From: an uncultured Candidatus Melainabacteria bacterium
GTDB taxonomy: Bacteria; Cyanobacteriota; Vampirovibrionia; Gastranaerophilales; Gastranaerophilaceae
NCBI GenBank assembly: GCA_934726055.1
Contig: CAKVCZ010000003.1
Coordinates: 41,324 to 105,323, forward strand
Reading direction: 5' to 3'
Length of the DNA stretch: 64,000 nucleotides
This document shows, piece after piece, positions 3,839-26,879 of this stretch (positions within the stretch are counted from its first letter, which is position 1; each line of letters begins with the position of its first letter). Both the position numbers and the translations under genes were made by a program. The notes below the pieces were generated by a model. The model was not told the DNA's origin. It saw nothing but the letters and a program-made list of their open reading frames with translations, and searched no databases.

Positions 3839-4792
3839 ATGAATAAACCAATTTTAGCAATTACAATTCCTTGTTATAATGAAGAATTATGTATTGAAAA
3901 AACAGTATATAGCTTGTTTGAAGTGTTAGATGATTTGATTCAAAAAAATAAAATTGATGATAAAAGTTTTATCTATCTGGTTGATGATGGTTCAAAAGAT
4001 AAAACTTGGGAAATTATTTTAAGATTACATAATGAACATTCTCGAGTAAAGGGATTGAAATTTGTTAGAAACTATGGAAATCAAAAAGCACATATTGCGG
4101 GGTTATTGAGTGTTAGAAAGTTAGGTTGCGACTGTGTTGTTTCTATTGATGCAGATTTGCAACAAGACCAATGGGCTATTGAAAAATTTATTGATAAATA
4201 TGCAGATGGTGCAGATATTGTATCAGGAATTAGAAATAGCAGAGATACAGATACATTTTTGAAAAAAACAACTGCAATTTGTTTTTATAAGACCATGAAT
4301 TTATTGGGCGTAAAAATTCCTATGAATCATTCTGACTTTAGGTTGGTTAGCAAAAAAGCATTGGATATTTTAGCTGAGTATCCTGAAAAAGAAATCTTTT
4401 TGAGAGGATTCTTTAACGAAATAGGCTTAAAATCTGCTATTGTGAATTTTGATGTAAAACCGAGAGAACAGGGTGAATCTAAATTTAATTATATGACACT
4501 TCTTGCACTTGCTCTAAACGGAATAACTTCATTCAGCATTATGCCATTGAGAATTATTGCAGTATTAGGCTTTTTTATGGCTTTATTTGCAGTAGGTTTA
4601 GGATTAGAAGTTGTTTATGAAAAAGTATTTTTAAACTCAACCCCAAATGGCTGGGCAACTTTGGTTGTTTTGTTAGCTTTCTTCGGTGGGTTACAATTAT
4701 TTTGCATGGGAATTATCGGCGAATACTTAGGACAAGTATTCAATGAAGTTAAAGCAAGACCTCGTTATATTGTTGAAACAGAACTAAATTAA
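3839..4792 (+). CDS. family 2 glycosyltransferase, polyprenyl-phosphate sugar transferase type (GtrB/ArnC-like)
   Basis: ITIPCYNEE...VDDGSKDKT...DADLQ motifs, with two C-terminal transmembrane helices typical of GtrB/ArnC-like enzymes. Confidence 0.8.
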   Translation: MNKPILAITIPCYNEELCIEKTVYSLFEVLDDLIQKNKIDDKSFIYLVDDGSKDKTWEIILRLHNEHSRVKGLKFVRNYGNQKAHIAGLLSVRKLGCDCVVSIDADLQQDQWAIEKFIDKYADGADIVSGIRNSRDTDTFLKKTTAICFYKTMNLLGVKIPMNHSDFRLVSKKALDILAEYPEKEIFLRGFFNEIGLKSAIVNFDVKPREQGESKFNYMTLLALALNGITSFSIMPLRIIAVLGFFMALFAVGLGLEVVYEKVFLNSTPNGWATLVVLLAFFGGLQLFCMGIIGEYLGQVFNEVKARPRYIVETELN

Positions 4793-5953
4793 TCCGTTTT
4801 GCTTATCTTGTTCATTAATTTGTTTAACGAAATATTTAATCATGCATGCTTCGTTTGTACTTATGCAAATTTCGAAGTAAGGTACGGCTTCTTGTAATTC
4901 TTTTTGCATGTGTGCTAACAATCCTGGGATGAATATTCTTTTTATTTTAACTTTGTCGTACAATCCGGATGCTTTAATTGCTTTTGATGCGATGTTTGCA
5001 GTGAATTTTTCTGCTGACCATGCTGTCAATACGCTCATACCGTCTGATGGAGTTACAATTAAATAAGTCCCTCGGTCAATTGATTCAAGCTCATTTGCAA
5101 CTGAAAAATATGTTAGTGCAAAATTTGTTGTTAAAAAAATTAGAGCATTTTCATCAGGATTGTTAAATTCATATACTTTTGGTTCAATTTGCAAAGGTTT
5201 TTGCGGATCAGTAAATATATTTTGCCTTAAGGTGATTAAAGAGGCAAACATTGATTCATCAAAATCTTCAAATATAATCATATTTGCATATTTACACAAA
5301 TAATAACTTGCTTTTGCACACAAATCATATAGATTATTTTGTGTTTTTAAATATATATAAGTCGGATTTGAAAATTCTTCAGCTTTTGTCTCTATTGCAG
5401 TTCTTCTGATTAGTGTGAGTTTTTCAACATTCTTTCCAAAAGAATTTTCATTTATTTCTGTTAAATCTTTTGGTAAATTTTGAATGACTGTAATGTTTTT
5501 TTCTTCAATTTTATTAACCAAATTGTCAGTTATATTACTTCCCTTTAATAAAACTGCGTCAATTTTGAAGTTCTCATTTATTCTTGTAATTTCAAAATCT
5601 AAAATGCGATTAAGTTTATTTTCATATTCAGTATCTGTATCAAGCACAACACAAAGTACTGTCGGATTAATAAAGGTTTTATCGTGTCTGAATAGAACTT
5701 CTTCACCACCAATTTTAAGTTGATTTTTTTCGCTCAAAATGATTTCTTTTTGGGCTTTTTTCATTGTATGAGAAAAAATATCTTTTAATTCTTCAGGTGC
5801 ATAAGGGCATTTGGTAATTTCAGTTTCACCTTTTGCTAATTTTAAAGCATAAGACATGCATGTTGGAAAACCACATTCTTTACAATTAGAATGTTCTTCT
5901 TTTTTTGATGCCGGTAAGTATTTAAAAATCTGTAAACCTGATAGTTCTGCCAT
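4784..5953 (-). CDS. acsC: corrinoid iron-sulfur protein large subunit (AcsC/CdhE-like)
   Basis: N-terminus [43 protein letters not shown] closely resembles the [4Fe-4S] N-terminal domain of CoFeSP gamma subunits. Its start overlaps the stop of the upstream acsD-like gene (TAATG). Confidence 0.7.
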   Translation of the reverse strand: MAELSGLQIFKYLPASKKEEHSNCKECGFPTCMSYALKLAKGETEITKCPYAPEELKDIFSHTMKKAQKEIILSEKNQLKIGGEEVLFRHDKTFINPTVLCVVLDTDTEYENKLNRILDFEITRINENFKIDAVLLKGSNITDNLVNKIEEKNITVIQNLPKDLTEINENSFGKNVEKLTLIRRTAIETKAEEFSNPTYIYLKTQNNLYDLCAKASYYLCKYANMIIFEDFDESMFASLITLRQNIFTDPQKPLQIEPKVYEFNNPDENALIFLTTNFALTYFSVANELESIDRGTYLIVTPSDGMSVLTAWSAEKFTANIASKAIKASGLYDKVKIKRIFIPGLLAHMQKELQEAVPYFEICISTNEACMIKYFVKQINEQDKQNGLI

Positions 5954-6846
5954 TAATTTAAACCTTTCAGTGTTTCAATACTTGTTGGATGATTTAACAC
6001 AACAATGTTTGCCCCCGCAGCAGAAATTGCTGAACCGGCAGTTATTTCAAGCATTATTGCTCGATGATTTAATTCTCCCCAACTTCCTTGTATATCTTCT
6101 GTTTTAGATTCTTTTGTTTTAAGAGTTTCTTCTCCTGCGAACGCTATAATAGGCATATTTAGCATTTTATCTCCGTCAAATCCCGCAAGTTTTATGCGTT
6201 CCATAATGCTATAACCATATTCTAAACCATAACCTAAACCGCCCATATCAGGATCAATAAGGATTTTATCAGGCGAAAGTCCCATTTCTGTTGTCAAAAT
6301 GTTCATTTCTTTTGCCAAATTTATATCAATAGGTGTTCGTATTACAAGTATATGATTTCCTTCTATCACAGGTGGAACTATGTTTTTATAAGTTTTTTCA
6401 CTTGCAAATGCTATTATGCATTCTCTGTCTAAAACACTAATTAATTCTGGTATAAGAACATTATCAATATCTGTTTTATTTATTCCTCGAATCATTAGAG
6501 GCTTTTTTATTGTTGGTAACAAAGTCTTTAAAAGTTTTTTTGCCTCATTTACCTGAGCTAAATCTTCATATATGTTAAATTTTAATCCCAAAATATCACA
6601 AGGGGTTTTTTGTGCAAGTTCGATCATTTTTTGTGGATTAAAATTTGTACCAATAAAGTAATCTTTAACTGACGGATTAGATAATTCAGGATTAGAAATA
6701 TTTAATTCTAAAGCATATAATGGTTTTGTTGTGTTAGAATTTTCAGTTAAAAAATGAAATGAAGAGTCGTTCCCTATTTTTAGGTTATTGAATTCAATAT
6801 TTCTTATTGGCTGTTTTATTTCAAATTTAGATGTCTGCTCTTGCAT
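5953..6846 (-). CDS. acsD: corrinoid iron-sulfur protein small subunit (AcsD/CdhD-like)
   Basis: [35 protein letters not shown] resembles the conserved core of the delta/small CoFeSP subunit. It is adjacent to, and coupled with, the acsC-like gene. Confidence 0.65.
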
Positions 6847-8707
6847 TTTTTACTTGTTCCATTAATTCAACAAACTCTTTTTCATCTAATGTTTCCATTT
6901 CAAGAAGTCTGTGAGAAAGTGCATCAAGCATATCTCTATTATCTTCTAATAGAGTTTTTGCCAAATCATATTGTTCATTAACGATTCTTTGAACTTCAGC
7001 ATCAATTTCTGCTGCAATTTCTTCGGAATAATCTCTTGAATGACCGAAATCTCTGCCCATAAACACGTGGTCTTGGCTCTTTCCGTATGCCAAGTTGCCT
7101 AATTTTTCACTCATACCATATTTTGTAACCATAGCACGAGCCATTTCGGTTACTTTTTCTAAGTCATTAGAAGCTCCTGTTGTGATAAATTCTTTGCCAT
7201 AAATTATTTCTTCAGCAACTCTACCGCCAAGAGTCATTGCAATTTTATCTAACAGTTGAACTTTTTTAAGAGTAAGGTGATCTTTTTCAGGTAAAACCAT
7301 TGTAACACCCAGTGCCATTCCACGTGGAATTATAGAAACTTTGTGTAATGGATCACAGTTTTTAAGTAATTTTGCAAGTAGAGCATGACCAACTTCATGA
7401 TATGCAGTGTTTTCTTTTTCTTCATCAGAAATGATTCTACTTTTCTTTTCCGGTCCTGCCATTACTTTATCTATTGCTTCTTCTAAATCATCCATATAAA
7501 TTTTCGCTTTGTTATGTCTTGCAGCAAGTAATGCAGCTTCGTTTAAAAGATTTTGCAAATCGGCACCTGTAAATCCCGGAGTACGTTTAGCTAAAGTTTT
7601 TAATTCAACTTCTTCAGCTAAAGGTTTATTTTTAGCGTGAACTTTTAAAATTTGTTCTCTGCCTAGTATGTCTGGTCTATTTATAACAATTTGTCTGTCA
7701 AATCTACCCGGACGTAAAAGAGCATTATCAAGAATGTCAGGTCTGTTTGTTGCTGCAATTACAATTATGTTGGTTGTATCGTCAAAACCGTCCATCTCAA
7801 CAAGCAATTGGTTAAGTGTTTGTTCACGTTCATCATGACCACCGCCAAGACCTGCACCACGTTGTCTTCCGACCGCATCAATTTCATCTATAAAAATTAT
7901 GCATGGCTGATGTTTTTTGGCTTGTTCAAACAAATCTCTAACTCTGCTTGCACCAACCCCAACAAACATTTCAACAAAGTCAGAACCGGAAATAGAGAAG
8001 AAAGGAACTCCTGCTTCACCTGCAACAGCTTTAGCCATTAAAGTTTTACCTGTTCCTGGAGGTCCAACAAGAAGGACACCTTTTGGAATTTTTGCACCTA
8101 ATTTTATATATTTTTCGCCATTTTTAAGAAAATCAACTATTTCTTCAAGTTCTTTCTTTTCTTCATCAATACCGGCTACATCGCCGAAAAGGACTTTAAC
8201 TTTGTTATCTAAAAGCATTTTGGCTCTGCTTTTACCGAAAGACATTGCTTGAGAACCGCCTGCGGATAACCCTTTAGCCATAATTATTAAGAATATAATG
8301 ATAAACAAAGGCAATGCTAATGAACCGATTATATTTAGAATTTTAGATGATTCACTTGGTTTCATAACAGATATATCGACGTTTGCATCTTCGAGTTTTT
8401 TAATCAAGTTAGGATCGCTTGGAGTCAAAACTTTATACTGCAAAGTTGGAGATGTTGTTTGCAGGCTTGAATAAATTCTTGGCAAATCTTTTTTTTCTTC
8501 TGTTTTTGGTTGAGAAACAGGTAGAGCAATAAGATAATTTTTCTCCATTTCGACGGATTTAATTTCTTTATTTGCAACTTTTTGTAAAAAGTTAGTATAA
8601 GACAGTTCTTGAGTGGTAGTAGTTGGTCCTGTAAATAACATAGAGATAAATGCTAGAACCATGATACCTAAGATTACATACATTCCGAGAGATTGGCTTT
8701 TATTCAT
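6827..8707 (-). CDS. ftsH: ATP-dependent zinc metalloprotease FtsH
   Basis: N-terminal TM helices, Walker A GPPGTGKT, Walker B IIFIDEID, second region of homology and the HEVGHA zinc motif. Confidence 0.95.
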
Positions 8708-8888
8708 AAAAAAATCCTTATATAATTACATCTTAATTCAATAATATAACAACAATAATAATATATCAACAAAAAAAGTTTTGGAACGAAAATATTGGCG
8801 GAATTTTCATATAAATTTATAAATAATGTAAAAGACTTGAAAAATTTTTAAAAATAGTGCATGATATAGAATATAAACTGGAGAAATT

Positions 8889-11147
8889 GTGGACAAAAGA
8901 TATTTTAATAGAAAAGTATTTGCGTTTACATTAGCTGAAATGATGGTCATTTTGGCGGTTTTCAGTGTAATTGCGGCAGCAACGTTGCCTGTGATAACTG
9001 CACATCAAAAATTAGGCAATTCCGATAATGTTACAACAGGTGATTTTGCAGGTGTTGACAAATGGACATATTCAAATTTAGGTTTATCGAATATAAAGGC
9101 AGGTACATATAGTACGGTTGCAATAGGTATGGAACCGACCGGTTCGGATGTTCCAATAGGTGTTCAGCCTCAGTTGATGATAAATAAAATTGGTAATGTT
9201 CAAGATACAAGTCATATAGCTTTCTTAGGTACAGCAAACTCAAATGTCTATTTTAATGGCAGATTATCAATGGCAGGTGAAAATGTTGCCATAGGTAATG
9301 ATGCGTTATGGTTTGGCGGTAGTGATAGAACGCAAGGTTCTTATAAAAGTGTATATTCTAACAATATTGCAATTGGAACAAAATCAATGTATCGTAATGA
9401 TAGTAGTTATAATAGTTCTGGTGATGTTTCTATTGGTGGTGAGGTTTTTGGAACTTGCTCGTTAAAATCATCTATTGCAATAGGTAACAGAGCAATGCTT
9501 AGTTCAGGTGCTGCATATAGCATTGCCATAGGTAATGATGCATTTTCAAATAAAGGAGGTTTATATAGTATTGCTATAGGTAAATACTCTAGTTACGGAT
9601 ACGATATGAGTCTTAGTTTTTTAGAATGGAAAGGAATTTATATTGGAAATTATGCATCATATAAACTTTATGGGATGGGCTCGCCTTTTTGTTTAATTGG
9701 TGGATATTCTGGCATGTATGCTTCTTCTACTCCTCTTGCTACACTTTTTGGTAAATCTGCCATAGGGTACTATTCTTCAGTTTCTTCGGACCATACTACA
9801 AGTAAGGGTATAGGATATTATTCTGCATTAATGCAAGATGGAGTTCGTGGAATATATATTGGAAGTTATGCTGGAAGAAATTCTACACATTATTATGTAC
9901 TTGGAGATGATAACGAATCTTCCAGTGTAGGCTATAACTCTGGAGGATTACAGTCAAGCTATTATTTTGATGAGGATATTACCAATATTGGTTATTATTC
10001 AGGATATTCGCAATCTTCGTATGGAGATTATAATAGATATTCTCCAACAAATGTAGGTGCATATTCAGGATATCGTCAGTATGGAGTTAGTTTACCTATA
10101 AATATAGGTTATGCTGCAGGAATGAATCAACGCTCAACAACTAAATCTACTGGAGCAATAAATATTGGATACAAAGCAGGTTATGCACAAACAACATTTA
10201 CTTCTCCAATAAATATAGGTTATTATGCAGGTGGTCATGCAACAACAGCAGATTATACTATTTGCATAGGTCCATACGCTTGTGCATATGATGCAGGCGA
10301 ATATGATATCCGTATTGGTATGCATAATGATATAAAACGAAATAAATACTGGTATAGCAGTATAAATGCATTGAAGGACTATTATGCAGGTTCATTTTCA
10401 AGTTCAGATACTGTATCAAGAATGGTAAAAAGAAGAAGTTATATAGGGTATTCTCCTGATCATGAAATTATCGAAAAGGGTAATATGAATTGTAATATTA
10501 CCCAAGCAGCAGGTAGTGGTAGTCCTTGCTCAGCTAATTCATATTCGAGTAGGCCTTGGTCTCCAAGTAGTAGTGGAACGACCAGTTTACAATCATCAAC
10601 GATATATGGTTATGCCAAAAATTATGCTCAACTTTTAATAACAGGTGGAACAGCACCGAATAACTTTTCAACCAGTTCAATTTTGTTATATTCAACTCAT
10701 ATATATGGTCCTGCAACATTTTTCCGTGTATATTCAGATAAGCGTTTAAAAGAAAATATTGAACCTTCAAAGTATTCTTTGAAAGATTTGAGAAAAATTA
10801 ATATTTACGAATATAATTTTAAAGATGACAAAACCAAAACTCCAAGAATAGGTGTAATTGCTCAAGAATTGCAAAAAATTATTCCACAAGCTGTTACAAA
10901 AAATAATGAAGGATATTTAGCAATCAATGCCGAATGGATTAACTATACTGTAATTAATTCAATAAAAGAGCTTGCGAATCAGGTTGAAATCATACAAAAA
11001 GAATTCACTTCTTACATAAAAGAATTTGTTACACTTGTTGCAAGAGTTAATACACTTGAAAAAGAAATAAGAAATTTGGAACAAGAAAATAAAGTTCTTT
11101 TAACATCGGTCGATAAAGCATACAGAAAGGCAAAAGCAAAGAAATAG
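8889..11147 (+). CDS. prepilin-type N-terminal domain / YadA-head-like repeat / peptidase S74 chaperone-domain fibre protein (paralogue 1)
   Basis: GTG start with GGAG upstream. N-terminus RKVFA-FTLAEMMVILAVFSVIAAATLP (class III signal-like). The centre holds about 14-residue repeats (IAIGNDAF, INIGYKAGY, INIGYYAGG...). The C-terminus is YSDKRLKENI...RIGVIAQELQKIIPQAV...INSIKEL (S74 intramolecular chaperone signature) followed by a coiled coil. Confidence 0.85.
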   Translation: MDKRYFNRKVFAFTLAEMMVILAVFSVIAAATLPVITAHQKLGNSDNVTTGDFAGVDKWTYSNLGLSNIKAGTYSTVAIGMEPTGSDVPIGVQPQLMINKIGNVQDTSHIAFLGTANSNVYFNGRLSMAGENVAIGNDALWFGGSDRTQGSYKSVYSNNIAIGTKSMYRNDSSYNSSGDVSIGGEVFGTCSLKSSIAIGNRAMLSSGAAYSIAIGNDAFSNKGGLYSIAIGKYSSYGYDMSLSFLEWKGIYIGNYASYKLYGMGSPFCLIGGYSGMYASSTPLATLFGKSAIGYYSSVSSDHTTSKGIGYYSALMQDGVRGIYIGSYAGRNSTHYYVLGDDNESSSVGYNSGGLQSSYYFDEDITNIGYYSGYSQSSYGDYNRYSPTNVGAYSGYRQYGVSLPINIGYAAGMNQRSTTKSTGAINIGYKAGYAQTTFTSPINIGYYAGGHATTADYTICIGPYACAYDAGEYDIRIGMHNDIKRNKYWYSSINALKDYYAGSFSSSDTVSRMVKRRSYIGYSPDHEIIEKGNMNCNITQAAGSGSPCSANSYSSRPWSPSSSGTTSLQSSTIYGYAKNYAQLLITGGTAPNNFSTSSILLYSTHIYGPATFFRVYSDKRLKENIEPSKYSLKDLRKINIYEYNFKDDKTKTPRIGVIAQELQKIIPQAVTKNNEGYLAINAEWINYTVINSIKELANQVEIIQKEFTSYIKEFVTLVARVNTLEKEIRNLEQENKVLLTSVDKAYRKAKAKK

Positions 11148-11150
11148 AGC

Positions 11151-13085
11151 ATGAAAAAATTTAAAATTAACAATTTTATAGCTTTTACTTTGTCAGAAAT
11201 GATGATTGTTATACTAATCTTTTCTGTGCTTTCTGCTGCAATATTGCCATCTATTGTTGGTAAAAAACAACAAATTTTAAATACAGATGAAACTCCTGTA
11301 ACTCGTTGGCAGGGTGAATCAAGTACCTTTGGAAACTATTTCCAAAACGGTAATACAAGGATATATCTAGGAAATTCTGCAACAACGATATCATCTACGT
11401 ATGTAACTAGTCCTACTCTTATTTTAGCAGGATTAAGTAATAAGTATTTGTCAAATGGCAGAAGTGATATAGAGTTTTTTGAGGGTAATAAAAATGTAGG
11501 AAGGATTGCATTCGATAGCAATAAAAATTTTTCAATTGGAAAAGATATTTCTTTATCAAATACAAGTTCATCTAGCAATACTATAATTGGTTACGGTGCA
11601 GCTAGAAATGGATATTATTTGAGGAGTGTTTTAATTGGATCTGAAGTAGGAGCACATTCATCAAATGCATCTACTTCAAGTGAGGATAATGTTGTTATAG
11701 GTTCCTCTTCTCTAAGAAATCATTACAAAGACTTTGATGTTTCAATTGGGCACGGAGCAGGTCATAATTTAAATGGAAATAGTAGCAAGAATTATAATTC
11801 AAATGTTAATATAGGATATGAAGCTGCATATAATATGTATGGTTCAGAGTCTGTTAATATAGGCCGAAATGCTGGGTATTCAAGTTCTTCAAATTCTGGA
11901 TCTGATTATAGTGTTAATCTTTTTGATCATGCGGGGAGTCTTAATAACTCTTATGCCCATGGAAATGTAAATATTTATTCATATGCTGGTGTATCAACAT
12001 CAAGTACAATGTCAACATATTCATTAAATTTAAATATTGGTGATTTTGCAGGATATGATAGTACTGTTTTATCAGGAAAGACAAATTTGGGTAAATATGC
12101 AGGATATTCTGCAAGTACTGGAACGAATTTGGGTAAATATGCAGGTACAAATTCAAAGCAATCAATAGGGTCTTTATATTTAGGTGCTTTTTCAGGTTAT
12201 GGAACAACAAGTGGAAATGATAGTACGTACATTGGTTATCGCTCTGGCTATAGTGCGAGTGGTTCTTATAATACAATAATTGGTTCTTATGCTGGTCATG
12301 GTTCATCAGGTAGTTATAATGTATATATTGGGTATAGTTCAGGTTATAATGCAAGTACATCTTATAATACCTATATAATTCCAACAACAGGAAGTTTTAC
12401 TGCTCCCACTAATAGTAGAAATATTGCAATTGGTTATGGATGTAAAGGTATAGCATTTGGTTACGATAGAACTTGTATTTCACCCTCTTATTCTGTTGCT
12501 AGTGGTGTAACAACAGCTTGGGATCCTACGGGAACAGGTTCTTATAAAACTTTTATAGCAGCACCTTTTGATGATGACGATAGTAATTATCCATTTATTA
12601 ATAGTGTCATTACTCTATATGCGAATAAAGTATATGCTGGAACATCTACTATTACAGCATTTTCTGATAAACGATTAAAAGAAAATATCAAATCTGTTGA
12701 AAAATCTTTAGAAAAAGTTAGAAGAATCAATGTTTATGAGTATTCTATGAAATCTGACAAAATGCATGAACCGCATATTGGGGTTATCGCTCAAGAATTA
12801 AAGGGGATTATCCCGCAGGCTGTTAGTGTAAACCCTAATACAAAATATTTTACTGTTGATACTGATTGGATTGTATATACCGCAATGGATGCTGTAAAAG
12901 ACCTTGATAAGATAGTTCAAAATTTACAAAGTAATGTTAAGTCTTATGTCAAACAATTGTTTGATTTGTCTAGACTTGTAGATAGTTTAGAATCCAGATT
13001 AAATAAAATTTCAGATTCACACATTGTTATGCAGGCAAAATTACAAGAAATTGATAAAATTTTGAGTAAAATGGAGAATAAGTAA
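11151..13085 (+). CDS. prepilin-type N-terminal domain / G-Y-rich repeat / peptidase S74 chaperone-domain fibre protein (paralogue 2)
   Basis: Starts 3 nt after paralogue 1. N-terminus NNFIA-FTLSEMMIVILIFSVLSAAILP. Repeats include NIGYEAAY, NIGRNAGYS, LGKYAGYS and YIGYRSGYS. C-terminus FSDKRLKENI...HIGVIAQELKGIIPQAV plus a coiled coil. Confidence 0.85.
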   Translation: MKKFKINNFIAFTLSEMMIVILIFSVLSAAILPSIVGKKQQILNTDETPVTRWQGESSTFGNYFQNGNTRIYLGNSATTISSTYVTSPTLILAGLSNKYLSNGRSDIEFFEGNKNVGRIAFDSNKNFSIGKDISLSNTSSSSNTIIGYGAARNGYYLRSVLIGSEVGAHSSNASTSSEDNVVIGSSSLRNHYKDFDVSIGHGAGHNLNGNSSKNYNSNVNIGYEAAYNMYGSESVNIGRNAGYSSSSNSGSDYSVNLFDHAGSLNNSYAHGNVNIYSYAGVSTSSTMSTYSLNLNIGDFAGYDSTVLSGKTNLGKYAGYSASTGTNLGKYAGTNSKQSIGSLYLGAFSGYGTTSGNDSTYIGYRSGYSASGSYNTIIGSYAGHGSSGSYNVYIGYSSGYNASTSYNTYIIPTTGSFTAPTNSRNIAIGYGCKGIAFGYDRTCISPSYSVASGVTTAWDPTGTGSYKTFIAAPFDDDDSNYPFINSVITLYANKVYAGTSTITAFSDKRLKENIKSVEKSLEKVRRINVYEYSMKSDKMHEPHIGVIAQELKGIIPQAVSVNPNTKYFTVDTDWIVYTAMDAVKDLDKIVQNLQSNVKSYVKQLFDLSRLVDSLESRLNKISDSHIVMQAKLQEIDKILSKMENK

Positions 13086-13090
13086 CGGTT

Positions 13091-15169
13091 ATGAAAAATA
13101 AAAAATTTAAAAATTACATAGCATTTACTTTAACTGAGATGACTCTTGTTTTGCTCATTACGAGTATTCTTGCTGCAGTACTTACTCCTGCAATTACAAA
13201 AAGTATTTCTAACAATGCTAAAAAGATGTCAGCAGATGTTGTAGTTTCTCCTTGGAAAGATATTACAACGGATTACCCTTATAGAGGAATGTTTAATCTT
13301 GGTGCGTTTAATTATAGTACTGTATCTATGGGATTCAAACCAACGCAATCCGCAGATACATACCGTGCTCCTGCTTTAATAGTTAGATCCAGATATGGTT
13401 CAAATAAAACTAATTTTTATACAAGTCCGCAAATTTCTATATTTCCAAGAACGTCGTCCTCTATGAACTTGTATCCGATGAATATTGCATTAGATAATAA
13501 CAGTAATGTGGGAATTTTAAATGATTCATTTAAAAATGTAAATAATGCTATAAGTTATTATGGTAATGTTAGTTCGATATTTATTGGAAATTCCATAAAT
13601 TCTGGTAATAACGCTTCATCGTATTCTAACAGCTCTATTTATATTGGTCAAGACATTTCTCAACCGTATGGTTCTTTAAACTCTATATACATAGGCTCTA
13701 AGTTATCGAAAGCACGCTATGATTCAAATACAATTAATATTGGGTATAATATCCATGAAATAAATTCAGGATATGCATTAAGAGATTCTATATTAATAGG
13801 AAATGGTGCAGGTTCTTATGCAGGTGGGCAGTTTGATATAAAAATAGGTCATTATTCTGGATATAATTTGCAAAATACATCAGGTAATGTTTTCATAGGC
13901 TCTCGTGCAGGATACCTAGAACCATATGACTCAACTAACAAAAGCGGATACGCTAATGAAAGTGTATTTGTAGGTTATGGTGCTGGTTCTACATATAAAA
14001 ATACAAGTTTTAAATCTCAATATGATGTTTCTATTGGTTATTTAGCTGGATATACTAAAGGAGATAATGTATATTCATCAGGCAATGTAAATATTGGTGC
14101 TTATAGTGGATATAATCCTCATTATAATGCGACAACAGGTAATAATATGAAGTTATATTGTAATACCAATGTAGGTTATTATGCTGGATATCGTTTATCT
14201 GGTTGGTCTGGATTTTTTAGTGATACTCAAAATTCCGTTTATGTTGGTAGGTATGCGGGCTATGCATCATTCTATGCAAGTTATTCTGTTGCTGTTGGTA
14301 GCTATGCAGGTGCAGGTTCATATAGTAATATTAATTCAGTATTTATTGGTGCAAATACTGAAAAGCCTATGGTGTTGATTTCAGGTGGTGGATTATTGAC
14401 GGGCAGTTTATCAAATAATGCAGTAATCATTGGTTACTCAAATACTCCAAGAGGGGGGAATACAGGTATAGGCTTTGATAGAAAGGGATCTATTCTTATT
14501 GGTGCAAGTAGTTCAACAGAAGATGGTGTAAAAATAAACAACTCCGTTGGTATTGGTTATGATGCTTGTAGAAAGGTAAACGGTGCAAATAAAATTTGTA
14601 TTGGCAATAGTATTACTTCAACATATTCAACAACTGGTTGGAATCCTAATGATTCAAGTTCACAAACCTTTATTGGATCAATGGCAGGTAATATGACAAG
14701 CAACTATATAACTCTTTATGCAGGACATATATTTGCTCCTGCATCTGCTCCGACTGCTGTTTCTGACCGTCGCTTGAAAGAAAATATTGTTCCATCAAAG
14801 CATTCTCTTGATGATATCAGAAAAGTAAACATATACAACTACAACATGAAAGGCGACAAAAATAAAACTCCACACATCGGTGTTATCGCTCAAGAACACA
14901 AAAAAATCTTCCCTCATGCTGTATCAAAATATCCAAAATCAAAATACTACACAGTTTCTGCTGAGTGGATGAACTTTACCGCAGTTAATGCTGTTAAAGA
15001 AATTGATAAAACTGTTCAACAAATTCAAGCATCTGTTAAAGCATTTATAAAAGACTTCATGGGGCTTAAATCTCGTGTCGAAAAACTTGAAGCAAAACTC
15101 GCTAAACTACAAAAAGAAAATAAAGAAATTAAAACTCATCTTGACAAAGTTAATGCAAAACTAAAATAA
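13091..15169 (+). CDS. prepilin-type N-terminal domain / G-Y-rich repeat / peptidase S74 chaperone-domain fibre protein (paralogue 3)
   Basis: Starts 5 nt after paralogue 2. N-terminus KNYIA-FTLTEMTLVLLITSILAAVLTP. Repeats include KIGHYSGYN, FIGSRAGYL, SIGYLAGYT, NIGAYSGYN and NVGYYAGYR. C-terminus VSDRRLKENI...HIGVIAQEHKKIFPHAV plus a coiled coil. Confidence 0.85.
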   Translation: MKNKKFKNYIAFTLTEMTLVLLITSILAAVLTPAITKSISNNAKKMSADVVVSPWKDITTDYPYRGMFNLGAFNYSTVSMGFKPTQSADTYRAPALIVRSRYGSNKTNFYTSPQISIFPRTSSSMNLYPMNIALDNNSNVGILNDSFKNVNNAISYYGNVSSIFIGNSINSGNNASSYSNSSIYIGQDISQPYGSLNSIYIGSKLSKARYDSNTINIGYNIHEINSGYALRDSILIGNGAGSYAGGQFDIKIGHYSGYNLQNTSGNVFIGSRAGYLEPYDSTNKSGYANESVFVGYGAGSTYKNTSFKSQYDVSIGYLAGYTKGDNVYSSGNVNIGAYSGYNPHYNATTGNNMKLYCNTNVGYYAGYRLSGWSGFFSDTQNSVYVGRYAGYASFYASYSVAVGSYAGAGSYSNINSVFIGANTEKPMVLISGGGLLTGSLSNNAVIIGYSNTPRGGNTGIGFDRKGSILIGASSSTEDGVKINNSVGIGYDACRKVNGANKICIGNSITSTYSTTGWNPNDSSSQTFIGSMAGNMTSNYITLYAGHIFAPASAPTAVSDRRLKENIVPSKHSLDDIRKVNIYNYNMKGDKNKTPHIGVIAQEHKKIFPHAVSKYPKSKYYTVSAEWMNFTAVNAVKEIDKTVQQIQASVKAFIKDFMGLKSRVEKLEAKLAKLQKENKEIKTHLDKVNAKLK

Positions 15170-15469: not shown

Positions 15470-18400
15470 ATGTCGACTAAATTCGCAAAAAGAGTTACTC
15501 CAATGGGTATTCCAGCTACTAATTTGGATTATTTACCCGACTTAATTGAAGTGCAAAAAAAATCATTTGAATGGTTTTTAAAAGAAGGTCTAAAGGAAGA
15601 GTTACTTTCTTTTTCACCTATCAAAGATTATACCGGAAGATTAGAATTGCATTTTCTTCCAAACTACACTTTCGATAATGCTAAATATACTATCGAAGAA
15701 GCAAGAATTCACGATGCAACTTACGCAAAACAACTTCGTGTTATGGTAAGGCTTGTAAACCGTGATTCAGGTGAAATTAAAGAACAAGAAGTTTACATCG
15801 GCGATATCCCTACAATGACTGACAAAGGTACGTTCATTGTAAACGGTGCAGAACGTGTTATCGTATCTCAAATTGTTCGTTCTCCTGGTGTTTACTTTAA
15901 ACGTGAAGTATCTCCAACAGGTAAACGTTTGTATAACGCAACAATTATTCCTAACAGAGGTGCTTGGATTAAGATTGAAACAGATTCTAACGATTTAATT
16001 TATGTTAAAATCGATAAAAACAGAAAGATTTTAGCAACAACTTTATTAAAAGCTATGGGCTTGTCTGTTGCTGAAATGGAAGCATCATTCTCACACTTTG
16101 ATTTCTTAAAGAAAACATTGGAAAAAGATACTGCTGAAACTACTGAAGATGCATTAATTGATGTTTATAAGAAATTAAGACCTGGTGATCCTGCATCAGC
16201 TCAAGGTGGACGTCAAATTATCGAAGCTCGTTTCTTCGATGAAAAGAAATACGATATTGGTCGTGTAGGTCGTTATAAATTAAATAAAAAATTGAACTTG
16301 AATATTCCTGCTTCTCAAAGAACGTTGACTATTCAAGATATTGTTTCATCAATTGAATACTTAATTAACTTAACTTATGATGAAGGTTCAGTTGATGATA
16401 TTGACCACTTAGGAAACAGACGTGTTCGTTCAGTTGGTGAATTGTTACAAAACCAATTTAGAGTTGGTCTAAGCCGTATTGAACGTATTGTTAAAGAAAG
16501 AATGACACTACAAGATAGTGAAACTCTTACTCCGTTGAACTTGTTAAATACAAAACCTTTAATCGCTTCATTAAAGGAATTTTTCGGAAGTTCACAATTA
16601 TCACAATTTATGGATCAAATTAATCCGTTAGCTGAATTAACTCACAAAAGACGTATTTCAGCATTAGGACCTGGCGGTTTGCAAAGAGAAAGAGCTGGAT
16701 TTGCAGTACGTGATATTCACCCTTCTCACTATGGACGTATTTGTCCGATTGAAACACCTGAAGGTCCAAACGCAGGTTTGATTGGTTCATTGGCTACACA
16801 CGCAAAAGTTAATGATTATGGATTCATCGAATCTCCATTCTTTGTAGTAAAAGATGGTGTTGTAACAGATGAAGTAGTTTATATGTCTGCTGATGAAGAC
16901 GAAAATTATCGTTGTGCTCCTGCAGACGTTGAGATGAATGAAGATAGAACTTTCAAAGATGCACAAGTTCCTGTTCGTTACAGATCAGAATTTATCATGT
17001 GTGAATCTTCAAAAGTTGACTATGTTGGGGTTTGCCCAATTCAAATTATTTCAGTTGCAACATCAGTAATTCCATTTATTGAACACGATGATGCTAACCG
17101 TGCATTGATGGGTTCAAACATGCAACGTCAATCAGTACCTCTATTAATAACTGAAAGACCAAGAGTTGCAACAGGTATGGAAGCAAGAGCAGCAAAAGAT
17201 TCAGGAATGCTTATTGTATCAGAATACGATGGTGTTGTAGAAAGAGTTGTAGGTGAAGAAATTACAATTCGTGATACGCAAGGTGTTCCTCACGTATATC
17301 AATTAATGAAATATGTAAGAAGTAACCAAGATACTTGTATTAACCAAAAACCAATTGTAAAAGAAGGTGATAAGGTTCAAGCAGGTGATGTAATTGCAGA
17401 TGGTGCTTCAACATGTGGCGGTGAACTTTCATTAGGTAAAAATGTTTTGATTGCATATATGCCTTGGGAAGGATATAACTTCGAAGATGCTATTCTTTTA
17501 TCAGAAAGATGCGTTCACGATGATATATTCACATCAGTTCACATTGAAAAATTAGAAATTGACGCAAGACAGACTAAATTAGGACCGGAAGAAATTACTC
17601 GTGAAATTCCGAATGTTTCAGAAGATTCATTAAGACATTTGGATGAACGCGGTATTGTTCGTATCGGTGCAAGAGTATATGCTGATGATATTTTGGTAGG
17701 TAAAGTTACACCAAAAGGTGAATCTGAACATCCGCCTGAAGAAAAATTATTAAGAGCAATTTTTGCTGAAAAAGCAAGAGATGTAAAAGATAATTCATTA
17801 AGAGTTCCTCACGGTGAAGGTGGTAGAGTTCTTGATGTTAAGGTATTTGACAGAGAAAAAGGTGATGAATTACCACCTGGAGCAAATACAGTAATCAGAG
17901 TTTACATTGCTCAAAAACGTAAAGTATCAGTAGGTGATAAGCTTTCAGGACGTCATGGTAACAAAGGTATCGTATCAAGAATTCTTGCAAAAGAAGATAT
18001 GCCATTCTTACCTGATGGTACTCCTGTTGATGTTGTATTGAACCCACTAGGTGTTCCTTCTCGTATGAACGTAGGTCAAACTTATGAACACTTATTAGGA
18101 TTAGCATCATACTTAACAAAGGATTATTATGCAGCACCTTCATTTGATGAACGTTTCGGTAAAAATATGTCTGAAAAAGTTACAAAAGAAGAATTGTTGC
18201 GTGGTATAAAAGAAACAGGTTGCGACTGGGTTGGCGAAGACGGTAAAGTTCGTTTAATCGACGGTCGTACAGGTGAACCATTTGACGAGCCTGTTGCAGT
18301 AGGGTTAACTTACTTCTTAAAACTTGTTCACTTAGTTGATGATAAGATCCATGCTCGTTCAACAGGTCCATACTCATTAGTAACTCAACAACCATTGGGT

Positions 18401-18784
18401 GGTAAAGCTCAATTTGGTGGTCAAAGATTTGGTGAAATGGAAGTTTGGGCTCTTGAAGCTTATGGTGCAGCATATACACTTCAAGAAATGCTTACAATCA
18501 AATCAGATGATGTAAACGGACGTAACAGAGCATACGAAGCAATTGTTAAAGGTGATAATATTCCAAGACCTGGTATTCCTGAATCATTCAAGGTACTTGT
18601 AAGAGAATTACAAAGTATTGGTTTGGATATTACAGTTGCTAAGAAAGATGGCGTTGAAGTTGACTTGATGAGTGATATTGATGACTTAAGAAAAGCAGCT
18701 CCAAAACGTACATTATCTGATATTGATTCAGAATTATTAAATATTAATTTCTTTGAAACACCAACAACTTTCGGTGATATATAA
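15470..18784 (+). CDS. rpoB: DNA-directed RNA polymerase subunit beta
   Basis: Full-length beta subunit with hallmark stretches ([49 protein letters not shown]). Confidence 0.97.
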
Positions 18785-18790
18785 AATTTA

Positions 18791-18820
18791 ATTTCTTCAA
18801 GGACTTATCCTTGAAGAAAT
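18791..18820 (+). other. perfect 13-bp inverted repeat (hairpin) in the rpoB-rpoC1 spacer
   Basis: atttcttcaagga (18791-18803) / tccttgaagaaat (18808-18820) with a 4-nt loop. Only a short T run follows, so it looks more like a processing or attenuation hairpin than a strong terminator. Confidence 0.5.
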
Positions 18821-18877
18821 TTCATATCAAAAGAAAAGGTAAAAGACAAACTAACTCAACAAAGGAGAAAAATATAA

Positions 18878-20587
18878 ATGTCAACAAGTATAGATTATTT
18901 TGACTATATACGAATCAGTATAGCATCACCGGAAAGAATTTTAAAATGGTCATACGGTGAAGTTACAAAACCTGAAACTATCAACTACCGTACATTGAAA
19001 CCGGAAAGAGATGGTCTGTTCTGCGAAAGAATCTTTGGACCAACAAAAGACTGGGAATGTTATTGCGGTAAATATAAAAGAGTAAGACATAAAGGTATCA
19101 TTTGTGAACGTTGTGGTGTTGAAGTTACAGATTCAAAAGTACGTCGTCACAGAATGGGACACATAAAATTAGCTGCTCCTGTTTCTCACATTTGGTTCTT
19201 AAAAGGTATTCCTTCATATTTAGGTTTACTTTTAGATATGACATTAAAAGATTTGGAACAAGTAATTTACTTTAACAGTTATGTAGTTATTGATCCTGCT
19301 GATACAGAATTCAGAAAACTTCAACTATTAAATGAAGAAGAATATGAAGATTATTTAATGGAACATGAAGAAACTGAATTAAAAGTAGGTATCGGTGCAG
19401 AAGCAATTAAAGAATTACTTGGCGAAATTGATGTAAAAGCATTGGCAGAAGAAATCAGAAATGAATTGGCTGCGGGTGTAAATTCAGTTCAAAGAAAAGG
19501 TAAATTGATAAAACGTTTAAGATTATTAGATTCATTAATTTCAAGTGAAACAGATCCAACTTGGATGATAATGGATGTACTTCCTGTAACACCACCTGAT
19601 TTAAGACCTATGGTTCAATTAGATGGCGGACGTTTTGCTACATCTGACTTAAACGATTTATACAGACGTGTAATTAACAGAAACAACCGTTTACAAAGAC
19701 TATTAGAAATGGGTGCTCCTGAAATTATTGTAAGAAACGAAAAACGTATGTTACAAGAAGCAGTAGATGCTCTAATTGATAATGGTCGTCGTGGTAGAAC
19801 AGTTGTTGGTCCAAATAACAGACCATTAAAATCATTGTCTAACATCATTGAAGGTAAACAAGGTCGTTTCCGTCAAAACTTGTTAGGTAAACGTGTTGAC
19901 TATTCAGGTCGTTCAGTAATTGTAGTTGGTCCTACATTAGAATTGAACCAATGCGGTTTACCAAAAGAAATGGCAATTGAATTGTTCAAACCGTTTGTTG
20001 TAAACAAATTAATCGAACGTGGATATGTTCAAAATATCAAATCAGCTAAAAAGAAAATTGAACGTTCAGAAGCGGTTGTTTGGGATATTTTAGAAGAGGT
20101 AATTGATGGACATCCGGTAATGTTAAACCGTGCTCCTACTCTTCACAGACTTGGTATTCAAGCATTTGAACCAAAACTTGTTGAAGGACGTGCAATTCAA
20201 TTACATCCGTTGGTATGTACAGCATTCAACGCTGACTTTGATGGCGACCAAATGGCTGTTCACGTTCCATTGAGTATAGAAGCTCAAACAGAAGCAAGAA
20301 TGTTGATGTTAGCAACAAATAACATTTTGGCTCCTGCAACAGGTAAACCTATTATTACACCATCACAAGATATGGTTATGGGTATGTATTATTTAACACT
20401 TATTAAAGATGAAAATATGGTACCTACAAAATATTTCTACAATTTCCAAGATGCAATTGCTGCATTAGAAGCAAATGTTATCAAGTTACATGACAAAATT
20501 TATGTAAGAGATGAACATGGCAAACGTCTTGAAACAACAGCAGGTAGAATTATTTTTAACGAAGCAGTAAGAAACGCAATTTTATAG
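18878..20587 (+). CDS. rpoC1: DNA-directed RNA polymerase subunit gamma (N-terminal half of beta-prime)
   Basis: Zinc-binding CxCGK...CERCG, the catalytic [12 protein letters not shown] motif, then a stop after about 569 aa. The remainder of beta-prime is a separate downstream gene. Confidence 0.95.
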
Positions 20588-20605: not shown

Positions 20606-23600
20606 ATGACAAATACATATACAACACAAAAGAAAACAATTGATTTCATTAATAAACAAATGGATAAGGGTGCATTAAAAAACTTACTTGCACAGATTTA
20701 TCTTGAATTTGGTGGTGCAAAAACAGCAACATTGGCAAATACCTTAAAAAATTTAGGATATCATTACGCTACAAAATCAGGTGTAACGATTTCTATTTCG
20801 GATTTGTCAGTTCCACCTATTAAACAACAATTATTGAAAGAGGCTGATGAGGAAATCGGAAAATCAACAAAGAGATACTTAAAAGGTGAAATTACCGAAG
20901 TAGAAAGATATACAAAGGTTATTGACACTTGGTCAGAAACAACAGCAAAATTAACAGAACAAGTAGTTAAAAACTTTGACAGATTGAATCCGGTATATAT
21001 GATGGCATTCTCAGGTGCCAGAGGTAATCTATCACAAGTATCACAATTGGTTGGTATGCGTGGTTTGATGGCTGATGCACAAGGTCAAATTATCGACTTG
21101 CCAATTCGTTCAAACTTTAAAGAAGGGCTTTCTTGTACAGAATACATTATTTCTTCATACGGTGCCCGTAAAGGTCTTGTAGATACAGCGTTGAAAACAG
21201 CCGACTCAGGATACTTAACAAGACGTTTAGTTGACGTTGCACAAGACGTTATTATTCGTGATGTAGATTGCCATGGTAAAAAACACATTATGTTAAAAGG
21301 TATCTATGATGGAGATACTTGTATTGTTCCTCTAATTGACAGATTGTTAGGTAGAACAATTGCTCAAGATATTCTTGATAAAGATGGCAATGTATTAATT
21401 GAATCAAATACAACATTAGATAGAAAAGATATCAAGAAAATTGAACGTTCAGGTATTGAATTAACAGAATTGGCTGTTCGTTCAGGTTTGACTTGTGAAT
21501 TAGAATATGGTATTTGCCAAAAATGTTATGGTTGGGCGATGACAACACAAAAATTAGTTGATGTTGGTGAGTCAATCGGTATTATCGCAGCTCAGTCAAT
21601 TGGTGAACCCGGAACACAATTAACAATGAGAACATTCCACACAGGTGGTGTATTCAAGGGTTCAGGTGCAATGAAACATATTATTGCTGATGAAGCAGGT
21701 GAAGTTGTTTCAGATGTAAAAACTCGTGAAGTTAGAACTCGTCATGGGGATGTTGTACAAATCCTTATTCTTGAATCTGACGTTGAAGTTAAAGGAGAAA
21801 AGAAATCAAAGAAATATCACATTCCTGCAGGTGCGATTATTTTATTCAAAAAAGGTCAAAAAATCGAAAAAGGTTTTGAACTTGCAGAATACGAACCTGT
21901 ATCACAAGGGGATGGTTCTCGTTTAACAGAAAAAGCAACAAAAGATATTACTTCAGATTTGTCTGGTGAAGTTGTATATAATGATTTTACAGCTGATGAA
22001 AAGAAAGATAGACAAGGTAATATTTCAAGAACAGCAAACAAGAGTGGCGTAGTATGGGTTCTAGGTGGTGATGTTTATAATCTACCTGGTGGCTCAAAAG
22101 TTCTTGTAAAAGATGAACAAACAATAAAAGAAGGTGAAAAATTAGCAGAAACTCTAACAATTTGCGAACATGGCGGTGAAGTTAGAGTTGGTGATGATTT
22201 AGAAATTGAAGAAGTAAAATTTGAAGGCAAGAAGATTAAAAAGATTGTTTCAGGTAAAGAATTAACAATTGTAATAGCTTCAATTTCTCCATCAAATGCT
22301 ACATTTGAACAAACTAAAAAAGAACAACTTTGGACAGTTGATAAGACAGGTGAAAAATATATTGTTAAATCTCCTGTTGATACAACTGTTGAAAACGGTA
22401 TGATTATTGCTGAATTAATCAGTGAAGATTGTACAGTTTCATCTTCAGGTGAAATTAAATATATTGATGTTGAAGTAGATGAAAATCAGATTATTACAAA
22501 AGCAGGTGATGTAGTATTTATTCCTGAAGAAGTTCATCAATTGAACAAGGAAGCTTCTTTAAAAATGGTTGAATCCGGCACACACGTTACTGCAGGTACT
22601 GAAGTTGTAAAAGACGTATATTGTCATTTAGACGGTATTGTTGAAATAAAAGAATATAACGATGTTATTCATGAAGTTACAATCAGACCTGGCGAAATTC
22701 ATCAACTTGCAAATGTTTCAGAATTAAAAGTTGAAGAAGGTGAAGTTGTTAAGAAAGGTACTTTAATTGCAGATGGAATTAAAGCAAAAGAAACTTCAAT
22801 TGTAACAATAATGGATTCAGAAATAGAAGATTTAGATATTGAAGATTTGGATGAAGAAATGGATTCATCTATGAATATTGATGAAGACAATATTGCAAAT
22901 CAGCCAATTCAAATCTTAGTAAGACCTGTTCAAGTTATTAAAGTTGAACAAAAAGATGTTTCAATTGATTTTAATACAACAGATGAGTTGATTGACATTG
23001 TACCTGTAACGCAATTGCAATATAAAGATGGTGCAAGAGTTAGAAACTTAGATGGTGCAACATTAATCAGAACAAGTTTGGTTCTTCAAATGCAAGGTTA
23101 CCTATCACACTTAAAAGGTATGGTAGAACTTGATGAAAAAGGTGCTTTGAAGATAGTTGTATTAGATAAGTTAATTGTTCGTCGTGAAATTGAATCAAAT
23201 TCAAAATTAAACGATTCATTGCAAACAGAATTGCTAGTAAAAAACGGTGAACAAATCGAACCGAAAACACCGGTTGCAAAAACTTGTGTATTAGCAATGA
23301 ATTCAGGTATTGCATCAATTAAAAATGAATCAGAAGAAGCAAGAAGATTGCAATTGATTTGTGAAAATAATAAATCAAAAGTTGCTATCAAATCAAAAGC
23401 AGTAGTAAAAGTTGGTCAATTCATAAAAGAAGACGATTTACTAACTGAAGGTGAAGACAGAGCTCCTGTTTCAGGTCAAGTGGTTGATGTTACAAAATCA
23501 GAAATTACAATCAGAAACGGCAGACCATATTTAATCAGTCCAGGTACAATGCTTCAGGTTGCAGCAGGTTCGTTGGTACAACGTGGTGATATGCTTGTTA

Positions 23601-25360: not shown

Positions 25361-25650
25361 ATTTTCATTATATCATTTATATAAAATTATTGTCTTTAAA
25401 ATAACAAAAATTAAAACATCTTAACACAAGATTGACGAAAGAGAATGTTTATCATAGCATGAATTCAGAGGAAATGAAGTGAACATCTTCAACTGTGCCG
25501 CAGCCGTAAAAGTCGGAATACTCCTGAATAACTGGAAGATTATTCATTTAAACTTATCGCCGGACTTCGGATTCAGAGTTTAGGCTTGTTTATCAGATAA
25601 ATAAAAACTATACCCTAAGATAAGTTTACTAGCTAAGAAATAAAGGATGT

Positions 25651-26376: not shown

Positions 26377-26879
26377 TGCAGTTGGACAAGATTAAAAACC
26401 CTCTAACAAAGTTAATATTAGTTGATTGTATTGGTTACAAAAAGGCAGAAATGCCAAAACCAAACAGACCATATTGTCTTTTTGACATGGATAAAGTAGA
26501 TGTTTTTGTAAAAAATGGCGAAAGAGCATTACCAAAGTTATCAAAAATGTTAAACAATGCAAAAACAGAAGAAGAAGTTGTAGAAGGCTTGTATATAGCA
26601 GACAGAATGATAGATGGTGGTGTTAAAACTATGGGAAATCTATATTCATCTGTTTTTTCAAGATTTAATGAATCAAGATCAGCTAATGTTCAAACTTTTT
26701 TATCTGGAATTTATAGAAAAACCTTGAATCCAAACGCATTTGGACCATTAGTAAAAATGTTATGCAATAATTTTTTAGATCCGCCAAAATCTAATTTTGA
26801 TCCAAACGAAGAAGTTGGTGGTGCTGTAATTGAATATATTAGAGATGCAGTAAAACAAAGTAAAGTAAGTGAAAATTAA
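26376..26879 (+). CDS. hypothetical protein, paralogue A of a tandem pair
   Basis: The start overlaps the stop of the upstream gene (TAATG). Shares a roughly 130-aa block with the next gene (PYCxFDMDKV...MLNNAKTEEE...FGPLxKML...FDPNE..GGAxIE). Confidence 0.7.
   Translation: MQLDKIKNPLTKLILVDCIGYKKAEMPKPNRPYCLFDMDKVDVFVKNGERALPKLSKMLNNAKTEEEVVEGLYIADRMIDGGVKTMGNLYSSVFSRFNESRSANVQTFLSGIYRKTLNPNAFGPLVKMLCNNFLDPPKSNFDPNEEVGGAVIEYIRDAVKQSKVSEN

Follow-up and report, generated by a model that had tools for sequence, protein, structure and literature searches.

What kind of surface structure is encoded by three adjacent genes whose products begin like type IV pilins and end like phage tail fibres? 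This question is raised by a stretch of 64,000 nucleotides (nt), referred to as the window in the following, from an uncultured Candidatus Melainabacteria bacterium of the Gastranaerophilales (GCA_934726055.1, contig CAKVCZ010000003.1, 41,324–105,323). Three co-directional fibre genes with one common architecture were found on its + strand, namely gene 1 (8889–11147; 752 amino acids (aa), 'AFTLAEMM' type), gene 2 (11151–13085; 644 aa, 'AFTLSEMM' type), and gene 3 (13091–15169; 692 aa, 'AFTLTEMT' type), separated by gaps of 3 and 5 nt. An earlier note on this DNA, made from the sequence alone, had given the same coordinates, lengths, and gaps, and these were confirmed exactly. Gene 1 opens with GTG, and a GGAG motif is located 5 nt ahead of it (8880–8883). 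We consider the chance to be about even that the triad encodes paralogous adhesin fibres which are processed by prepilin peptidase, trimerised by a peptidase S74 chaperone, and carried on a type IV filament, representing a 'modular pilin' family specific for the Gastranaerophilales. What the data presented here directly support are the identities of the domains, the catalytic dyad of the chaperone, an N-terminus of the pilin type, the conservation of synteny, and the fast divergence of the stalk.

The N-Terminus of the Fibre Proteins

All three proteins start with a basic leader, followed by the motif A↓FTL[A/S/T]EM (the arrow marking the predicted cleavage site) and a hydrophobic stretch. The leader of gene 1 comprises 12 aa and precedes an alpha1N helix reaching from F1 to P22 (class III signal, 8889–9008, + strand), whereas 11-aa leaders followed by alpha1N were identified in gene 2 (11151–11270, + strand; helix at aa 14–36 of the structural model) and gene 3 (13091–13210, + strand). 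In the six-frame translation of the window, the motif occurs only 4 times, each time opening a long open reading frame (ORF). The mature residues F1, L3, E5, S14, A18, and P22 were found to be invariant in 35 family members, which corresponds to the canonical alpha1N pattern of pilins. In pilins, E5 and P22 are required for filament packing and not for simple anchoring.

A profile built from the first ~135 aa of 19 members was searched against all PDB sequences. Its significant matches were confined to type IV pilins and pseudopilins, about 20 in number, including Thermus PilA4 (E = 4e-6), S. sanguinis PilE1, Geobacter PilA, PAK pilin, Neisseria PilE, GspG, PpdD, and MshA. Each of these alignments starts with the first residue of the mature, solved chain, which is paired with the predicted F1. 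The type IV prepilin (class III) signal proposed in the earlier note was thus corroborated by the invariant F1/E5/S14/P22 and by the exclusive matches of the family profile to pilins and pseudopilins; judged from its sequence, the fibre N-terminus is a genuine pilin-type alpha1N. The Pfam model N_methyl (PF07963), which the note had suggested as a check, gave a divided outcome: relatives exceeded the gathering threshold of 21.2 bits in 8 of 10 cases (24–28 bits), but the window proteins were borderline, with 19.9, 21.3, and 15.2 bits for genes 1–3. TIGR02532 was narrowly passed by gene 2 only (16.5 versus 16.3 bits).

Behind alpha1N, the likeness to pilins ends. In the AlphaFold2 model of gene 2, the helix stops at aa 36 and the next domain reaches predicted local distance difference test (pLDDT) values of 36–58; the PDB profile matches likewise end after alpha1N. 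After the helix, the chain continues with a short, polar linker and a conserved Trp, and then with a beta domain of ~100 aa that is specific to the family and that, among the sequences examined, was found only behind this pilin-type signal.

The Peptidase S74 Domain and Its Phage Relatives

The full Pfam model Peptidase_S74 (PF13884, IPR030392) matched all three proteins with 59.1, 61.7, and 58.5 bits, respectively (E = 5e-16 to 8e-17), compared to a gathering threshold of 22 bits. The domain extends over 10734–11147 in gene 1, 12663–13085 in gene 2, and 14762–15169 in gene 3 (all + strand), and self-cleavage is predicted at Ser616 (SDKRLK), Ser505 (SDKRLK), and Ser558 (SDRRLK), which would release 137, 140, and 135 aa, respectively. 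Both SD[KR]RLKENI and [RH]IGVIAQE were found in the C-termini, and the Ser/Lys dyad of the SDxxxK motif is intact in 42 out of 42 proteins from 14 syntenic triads, the variant SDARSK included. Sequence and fold searches with the C-terminus led to phage tail fibres (8jov and the T5-type 6f45), the MyRF ICA (7dc3), and an endosialidase chaperone (3gw6). The chaperone assignment of the earlier note is therefore upheld; the heptad 'coiled coil' that it described further downstream is actually the long helix with which the chaperone domain ends (aa 571–643 in the gene 2 model). By its score and its intact dyad, the C-terminus is an S74 intramolecular chaperone, for which self-release and trimer formation are predicted.

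These matches raise the question of whether the triad could be a prophage or tailocin tail-fibre locus, or a set of recently transferred phage genes with an N-terminus that is hydrophobic by chance. The C-terminal ~25% matches T5-like tail fibres, a homologue was named 'tail fiber domain-containing protein' by NCBI, and the predicted fold resembles that of viral fibres. However, the triad is flanked by ftsH (6827–8707, − strand) and rpoB (15470–18784), the rest of the window consists of housekeeping and metabolism genes, no phage genes were found in the 64-kb window, and the arrangement is syntenic in about 14 species. Furthermore, none of 50,697 phage records matched the repeats or the N-terminus of the fibre proteins, the pilin-specific N-terminus being their most conserved part. 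This context and synteny exclude a prophage origin, and phage relatives exist for the chaperone alone; the explanation is effectively refuted, with next to no probability left to it. Named homologues and related loci of the fibre proteins belong to Candidatus Melainabacteria or Gastranaerophilales.

The Central Beta-Solenoid

Between the terminal domains, the pattern N-[VI]-x-I-G-x-x-[AS]-G was found in 14–20 copies per protein with a modal spacing of 16–17 aa (range 14–27). In gene 1 (9291–10328, + strand), about 19 copies of NxxIGxxAG with a period of ~16–17 aa are homologous to those of YadA_head-positive relatives; gene 2 (11496–12485, + strand) features about 15 copies, and gene 3 (13448–14725, + strand) about 13 clear copies with degenerate ones upstream. 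The earlier note had described repeats of ~14 residues resembling the YadA/Hep_Hag head repeat. The repeats are real, but their period had to be corrected, and the likeness to YadA holds at the family level and not as a direct match of the window proteins. The YadA_head/Hep_Hag model (PF05658, IPR008640) gave no match at E ≤ 10 in the three window proteins or in 12 triad central regions, and a Pfam search of these 12 regions gave no match at all. Single-copy Gastranaerophilales relatives, by comparison, reached 106.6 bits in 9 stretches (L046), 68.1 bits (L055), 44 bits (L075, from the complete MEL.A1 genome), 31.9 bits (L052), and 31.1 bits (L025). Since YadA_head misses the window repeats but matches these homologous relatives (hhalign of window-type versus YadA_head-positive central regions, 98.8% probability, E = 6.5e-17), the window repeats are diverged relatives of YadA_head rather than detectable members.

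The AlphaFold2 monomer of gene 2 was modelled as a solenoid of short strands, with one strand every ~16 aa and pLDDT values of 70–89 over aa 100–410. As the model comprises the monomer only, we infer trimerisation from domain identity. No significant solenoid match was obtained with Foldseek against the PDB, the best one being the head of the trimeric autotransporter adhesin (TAA) CbpF (E = 0.08, non-significant), and a PDB profile search with the central region returned weak left-handed beta-helix enzymes only. In total, 54 matches at E ≤ 0.001 (best 8e-12) were obtained among predicted viral structures (BFVD). Most of them were phage and giant-virus 'intramolecular chaperone' fibres, and YadA-like head or LbR_YadA-like structures were matched at ~1e-4.

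The same repeat was detected in thousands of proteins with Sec signals from Bacteroidota, Bdellovibrionota, and other phyla, many of which end in S74 or in a type IX secretion system sorting domain. Together with a canonical G↓F[ST]L.E prepilin signal and S74, it was found in a few unrelated proteins. Two of these, P0182 and P0179, contain both domains above threshold and come from unrelated lineages. The prepilin–repeat–S74 fusion is recurrent, since unrelated proteins of this type combine the same parts. In the unclassified metagenome-assembled genome (MAG) 'bacterium CM_BacZag150.40' (L036, 1801–8966), two adjacent prepilin-plus-S74 genes with the signals GFTLAELM and AFSLTELL are encoded on the − strand, and a third S74 gene lacking the prepilin signal lies near this pair; possibly, this tandem array arose independently, outside the clade of the triad.

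Conservation of the Triad and Composition of the Fibre

Species-representative genomes were scanned, with all identities being calculated against the window proteins. The co-occurrence in related genomes, which the earlier note had proposed to test, was confirmed; the triad was recovered in the same slot from ftsH to rpoB in about 14 species, positional orthologues of gene 1 included. The gene order (AFTL-A-E, AFTL-S-E, AFTL-T/M-E) is constant, the intergenic gaps measure 0–5 nt with occasional overlaps, and losses of a paralogue were not seen in the syntenic genomes. Identity amounts to 70–79% for alpha1N, 42–56% for the chaperone region, and 27–34% for the stalk, compared to 88–91% for FtsH and 95–97% for RpoB. 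Given this low stalk identity next to conserved flanking proteins, the stalks evolve exceptionally fast, the N-terminus being the most conserved part of the protein. All regions group by gene position and not by genome, so that concerted evolution among the paralogues was ruled out and the paralogues must be old. A seemingly hypervariable '714-aa group' (more than 100 clusters with an identical N-terminus) was recognized as one protein with a median identity of 99% from an abundant species.

Three adjacent paralogues with a trimerising chaperone might form a heterotrimer, in which each gene would contribute one chain to an asymmetric fibre and the three alpha1N helices would be staggered atop a type IV filament, comparable to GspI-J-K. 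Fixed order and gaps of 0–5 nt in about 14 species suggest co-expression at equal stoichiometry, all three paralogues are kept in every syntenic genome, and the alpha1N signatures are position-specific (A/S/T at +4), with 76% identity within a position versus 50% between positions. However, the mature lengths within a genome differ by 21–110 aa and do not covary (r = 0.00, 0.19, and 0.50; n = 14), and the C-terminal helices are just 28% identical between paralogues. Many relatives are lone genes that can only form homotrimers, and the characterised S74 fibres cited are all homotrimers. The heterotrimer is therefore weakly disfavoured and, in our view, unlikely, but it stays alive because the operon is tight and its order fixed. 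A more specific version, in which three anciently diverged chains, produced in equal amounts from the operon, clamped by S74, and set free through self-cleavage, would present non-equivalent alpha1N helices as a staggered cap nucleating the type IV filament, is considered quite improbable. If true, such a tip would represent a phage-derived way of connecting an adhesin of three-fold symmetry with a helical pilus, and a new mode of pilus priming.

Both the existence of lone-gene relatives and the unmatched chain lengths favour homotrimers. In distant Gastranaerophilales, lone 'AFTLAEMMVVMLI' plus S74 genes are located at various loci, several per genome (on five contigs in one MAG), and such members at other loci indicate that homotrimers would be sufficient.

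Filament-Borne Fibre or Envelope Protein

Several results weigh against a fibre carried by a type IV filament. All features of the class III signal are present in the window proteins except at position −1, where Ala replaces Gly, and N_methyl remained below its threshold in two out of the three. Neither alpha1C nor a classical pilin head was detected in the AlphaFold2 model or the PDB profile search. Furthermore, the structure prediction is limited to the monomer and of moderate confidence (mean pLDDT 65.5). No pilD, pilB, pilC, or pilQ gene was found in 84 kb of the contig (the window plus 10 kb beyond each end), and searches with E. coli Hof/Gsp queries revealed no prepilin peptidase, PilC, or secretin in these 84 kb or in ~1.3 Mb of related loci. 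T2SSE ATPases were detected in the related loci L026 and L027: in L026, another fibre copy is found at a distance of 2 kb from a PilT-like ATPase, and in L027, the fibre gene directly follows an MshEN/T2SSE ATPase. A functional link in L027 was rejected, however. Four other contigs feature the neighbourhood of relA, histidine kinase, response regulator, ATPase, and mlaE without a fibre gene, and the adjacency is therefore regarded as an insertion in one lineage.

This neighbourhood, consisting of relA, a histidine kinase, a response regulator, the MshEN+T2SSE ATPase, and mlaE, is conserved in Gastranaerophilales (L027, 974–4480; L086–L089, ~4600–11400). The ATPase, being 82–100% identical across many MAGs and without adjoining PilC or PilD, looks like an orphan filament ATPase that is possibly responsive to cyclic di-GMP. 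A FliI-type ATPase (ATP-synt_ab plus T3SS_ATPase_C; L091, 7224–8609) is encoded on the contig of the window, ~10 kb past its 3' end, which is consistent with flagellated Gastranaerophilales. For the termite-associated Ca. Gastranaerophilus termiticola, pilA, pilB, pilC, pilT, and pilD were reported (PMC5877343); in the Melainabacteria papers of Di Rienzi (2013) and Soo (2014), pili are not mentioned.

The fibre may alternatively not be part of a pilus at all. The class III signal would then have no role beyond that of a cleavable anchor in the membrane or of a targeting signal, and the trimer would be tethered by its three alpha1N helices in the cytoplasmic membrane or the envelope, or handled by a pseudopilus resembling that of type II secretion. 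Archaeal 'bindosome' proteins offer an analogy, as they possess prepilin signals without forming pili. Since only alpha1N is pilin-like, with no alpha1C or pilin head detected, and no pilus machinery was found near the triad or most family members, this reading is a serious rival, although we rate it as rather unlikely. The domain behind the helix, which invariably accompanies the signal, might act as a module for envelope binding, comparable to the N-terminal domain of the 'MAT' fibres discussed below. Conversely, the invariant E5 and P22 are features of filament packing, and the fast evolution of the stalk suggests exposure to the environment. In addition, a single-chain solenoid of ~20 turns, estimated at ~10–18 nm, would be too short to reach from the inner membrane to the exterior of a diderm cell.

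Ala(−1) is usual in the conventional short pilins of the lineage, too (226–342 aa, 'AFTLAEVLITLGIIGVVAAMTIP', E5/G14/P22; mostly Ala), and Ala is reportedly, in work of Strom and Lory from 1991, the one −1 substitution tolerated by PilD. Such a gene was also identified within the window (53978–54736, + strand). Its product of 252 aa carries VA↓FTLAETLIVMGIIGVVAALTIP with E5, G14, and P22, shows a GspG match (E = 1.7e-5) and N-terminal matches to ComGC/ComGE/PilA/GspG, and is a candidate filament subunit with the same Ala(−1) signal. The gene is isolated, with a PFOR gene on one side and mraW on the other. In L022, four related genes are arranged in tandem (16284–20298); a link to the nearby fibre gene was dismissed there, the short pilins being transcribed as a unit of their own, behind three genes on the opposite strand. 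An adhesin borne by a filament is in keeping with the invariant E5 and P22, with the rapid evolution of the stalk, and with the presence of ordinary pilins that share the Ala(−1) signal.

Proposed Assembly and Implications

For the favoured filament-borne adhesin, leader cleavage, self-cleavage, trimerisation, filament loading, and the adhesin role, all of which we infer, may be arranged in the following sequence. The precursor would insert into the inner membrane via its class III signal, and prepilin peptidase would cut the leader of 11–12 aa after Ala(−1), leaving the pilin alpha1N (F1, E5, S14, P22) joined to the family-specific beta domain of ~100 aa. In the periplasm, the S74 chaperone would gather three chains, template the folding of the YadA-related left-handed beta-solenoid stalk, and excise itself at the SDxxxK serine, whereby ~135–140 aa would be freed. 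A type IV filament machine would take up the mature trimer, which presumably retains three alpha1N helices, and would display it; the most likely place is the tip of the filament, where the CofB and TcpB trimers are located. The fast-evolving stalk and tip of the fibre may bind variable ligands there, and since separate homotrimers of each paralogue are most probable, three alternative tips would be available.

Among the relatives of cyanobacteria, the Melainabacteria are a widespread, uncultured group of the gut whose cell surface is almost uncharted. The fibre family is multi-copy and very fast-evolving, and probably represents the principal set of variable adhesins or receptors in the Gastranaerophilales, which would bear on attachment to host, mucus, or partner cells, on phage recognition, and on strain typing. 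The family would unite a prepilin signal, a YadA-type beta-roll, and a phage S74 chaperone, each so far studied separately, and could offer a tractable case for the mounting of an obligate trimer on a type IV filament.

Other Features of the Window

The window has a G+C content of ~31%. Behind rpoB, a split rpoC (18878–20587 and 20606–24472) was found, which is the cyanobacterial arrangement. A promoter and terminator scan yielded signals no better than those in shuffled sequence. Immediately downstream of ftsH, two adjacent ORFs of the CdhD family (389 and 297 aa; − strand; 4784–6846) encode proteins like the delta subunit of CO dehydrogenase/acetyl-CoA synthase, one of them with an Fe–S motif; the syntenic locus L001 is devoid of them and features a ribbon-helix-helix (RHH) gene in their place.

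An AdoCbl-II riboswitch (25463–25529, + strand; 39.9 bits compared to a gathering threshold of 36.5) is located directly upstream of three ORFs (25651–26376, 26376–26879, and 26903–27511) without Pfam or NCBIfam match, which may be unmodelled genes for cobalamin-related transport or binding. Beside tRNA-Cys (42735–42806), two large ORFs with HNH domains were identified on the − strand (42917–44335, 472 aa; 44570–45730, 386 aa). Their matches to the HNH region of IscB and Cas9d were weak and far below threshold (29 and 25 bits versus cut-offs of 175 and 375), so that they could be IscB-like nucleases or plain HNH proteins. Pfam and NCBIfam gave no match for an ORF of 523 aa (48444–50015, − strand) and one of 195 aa (29237–29824, + strand).

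Comparison with Known Systems

The combination of domains had been regarded as undescribed in the earlier note, which proved incorrect. In an InterPro survey of 'modular pilins', Raynaud et al. (2021; PMC8179133, Dataset S1) listed 29 proteins with IPR012902–IPR030392, 4 with IPR012902–IPR008640–IPR030392, and 3 with a double IPR008640, the YadA head signature. The domain string is identical in both cases, running from a prepilin motif through YadA-head repeats to S74 at the C-terminus; the survey, however, lists the architecture only, without structure, genomic context, or function, and its text refers to S74 only as a 'predicted peptidase'. A characterisation of any pilin–S74 protein was not found in our literature search. 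The characterised modular pilins, PilB with a vWA module and PilC with a lectin module, contain a full pilin module and are monomeric, whereas the window family has only alpha1N with a novel beta domain, and its added module is an obligate trimer.

The conflict that the earlier note saw between an obligate trimer and pilin assembly dissolves in view of the minor pilins CofB (CFA/III of enterotoxigenic E. coli) and TcpB (V. cholerae TCP), which trimerise at the tip of the pilus and start its assembly; GspI-J-K constitute a heterotrimeric tip (PMC8179133). CofB and TcpB combine a pilin N-terminus with large beta-rich C-terminal modules, as do the fibre proteins, and set a functional precedent for a trimer on pilin helices. 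However, they are type IVb proteins with a complete pilin domain and without S74, self-cleavage, or a YadA-type solenoid. Both were absent among the PDB sequence and fold matches of the fibre proteins, so the likeness is functional only.

A second comparison concerns the 21 trimeric surface fibres of Bdellovibrio termed 'MAT' (mosaic adhesive trimer) by Caulton et al. (2024; PMC10769870), 13 of which end in S74 with demonstrated SDxxxK self-cleavage, and all of which carry a Sec signal and a conserved cell-proximal N-terminal domain. Like the window family as it is envisaged here, the S74 subgroup consists of cell-encoded, multi-copy, trimeric beta-helical surface fibres with a self-cleaving SDxxxK chaperone and a conserved cell-proximal N-terminal domain of ~100–130 aa, and Bdellovibrionota proteins share the repeat-plus-S74 part. 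MATs differ in their Sec signal peptide, another N-terminal domain, and the lack of a pilin alpha1N. A hidden Markov model (HMM) of the Melainabacteria post-helix domain had no match in the Bdellovibrionota ORFs examined, an indirect comparison with the MAT domain.

With TAAs of the YadA family, the fibre proteins share left-handed beta-roll head repeats, relatives of the window proteins matching PF05658 strongly; the window repeats deviate in their period of 16–17 aa and were missed by the YadA_head HMM. The polarity is opposite, TAAs being held by a C-terminal outer-membrane barrel and the fibres by an N-terminal pilin helix, with trimerisation of the fibres attributed to S74. The YadA anchor beta-barrel (IPR005594), the defining feature of TAAs, had no match in the window proteins or the family members tested. 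Phage tail fibres and endosialidases (K1F endoNF, T5 pb1) correspond in the C-terminal chaperone with its dyad and in the solenoid-plus-chaperone fold, but carry a virion-attachment domain where the window family has a pilin N-terminus and a chromosomal, syntenic housekeeping locus. Compared to these systems, the domain combination itself was already catalogued in 2021. What is new is the Melainabacteria family, together with the conservation of its three genes beside rpoB, a pilin module that is truncated and joined to a specific beta domain, and the extreme divergence of the stalk.

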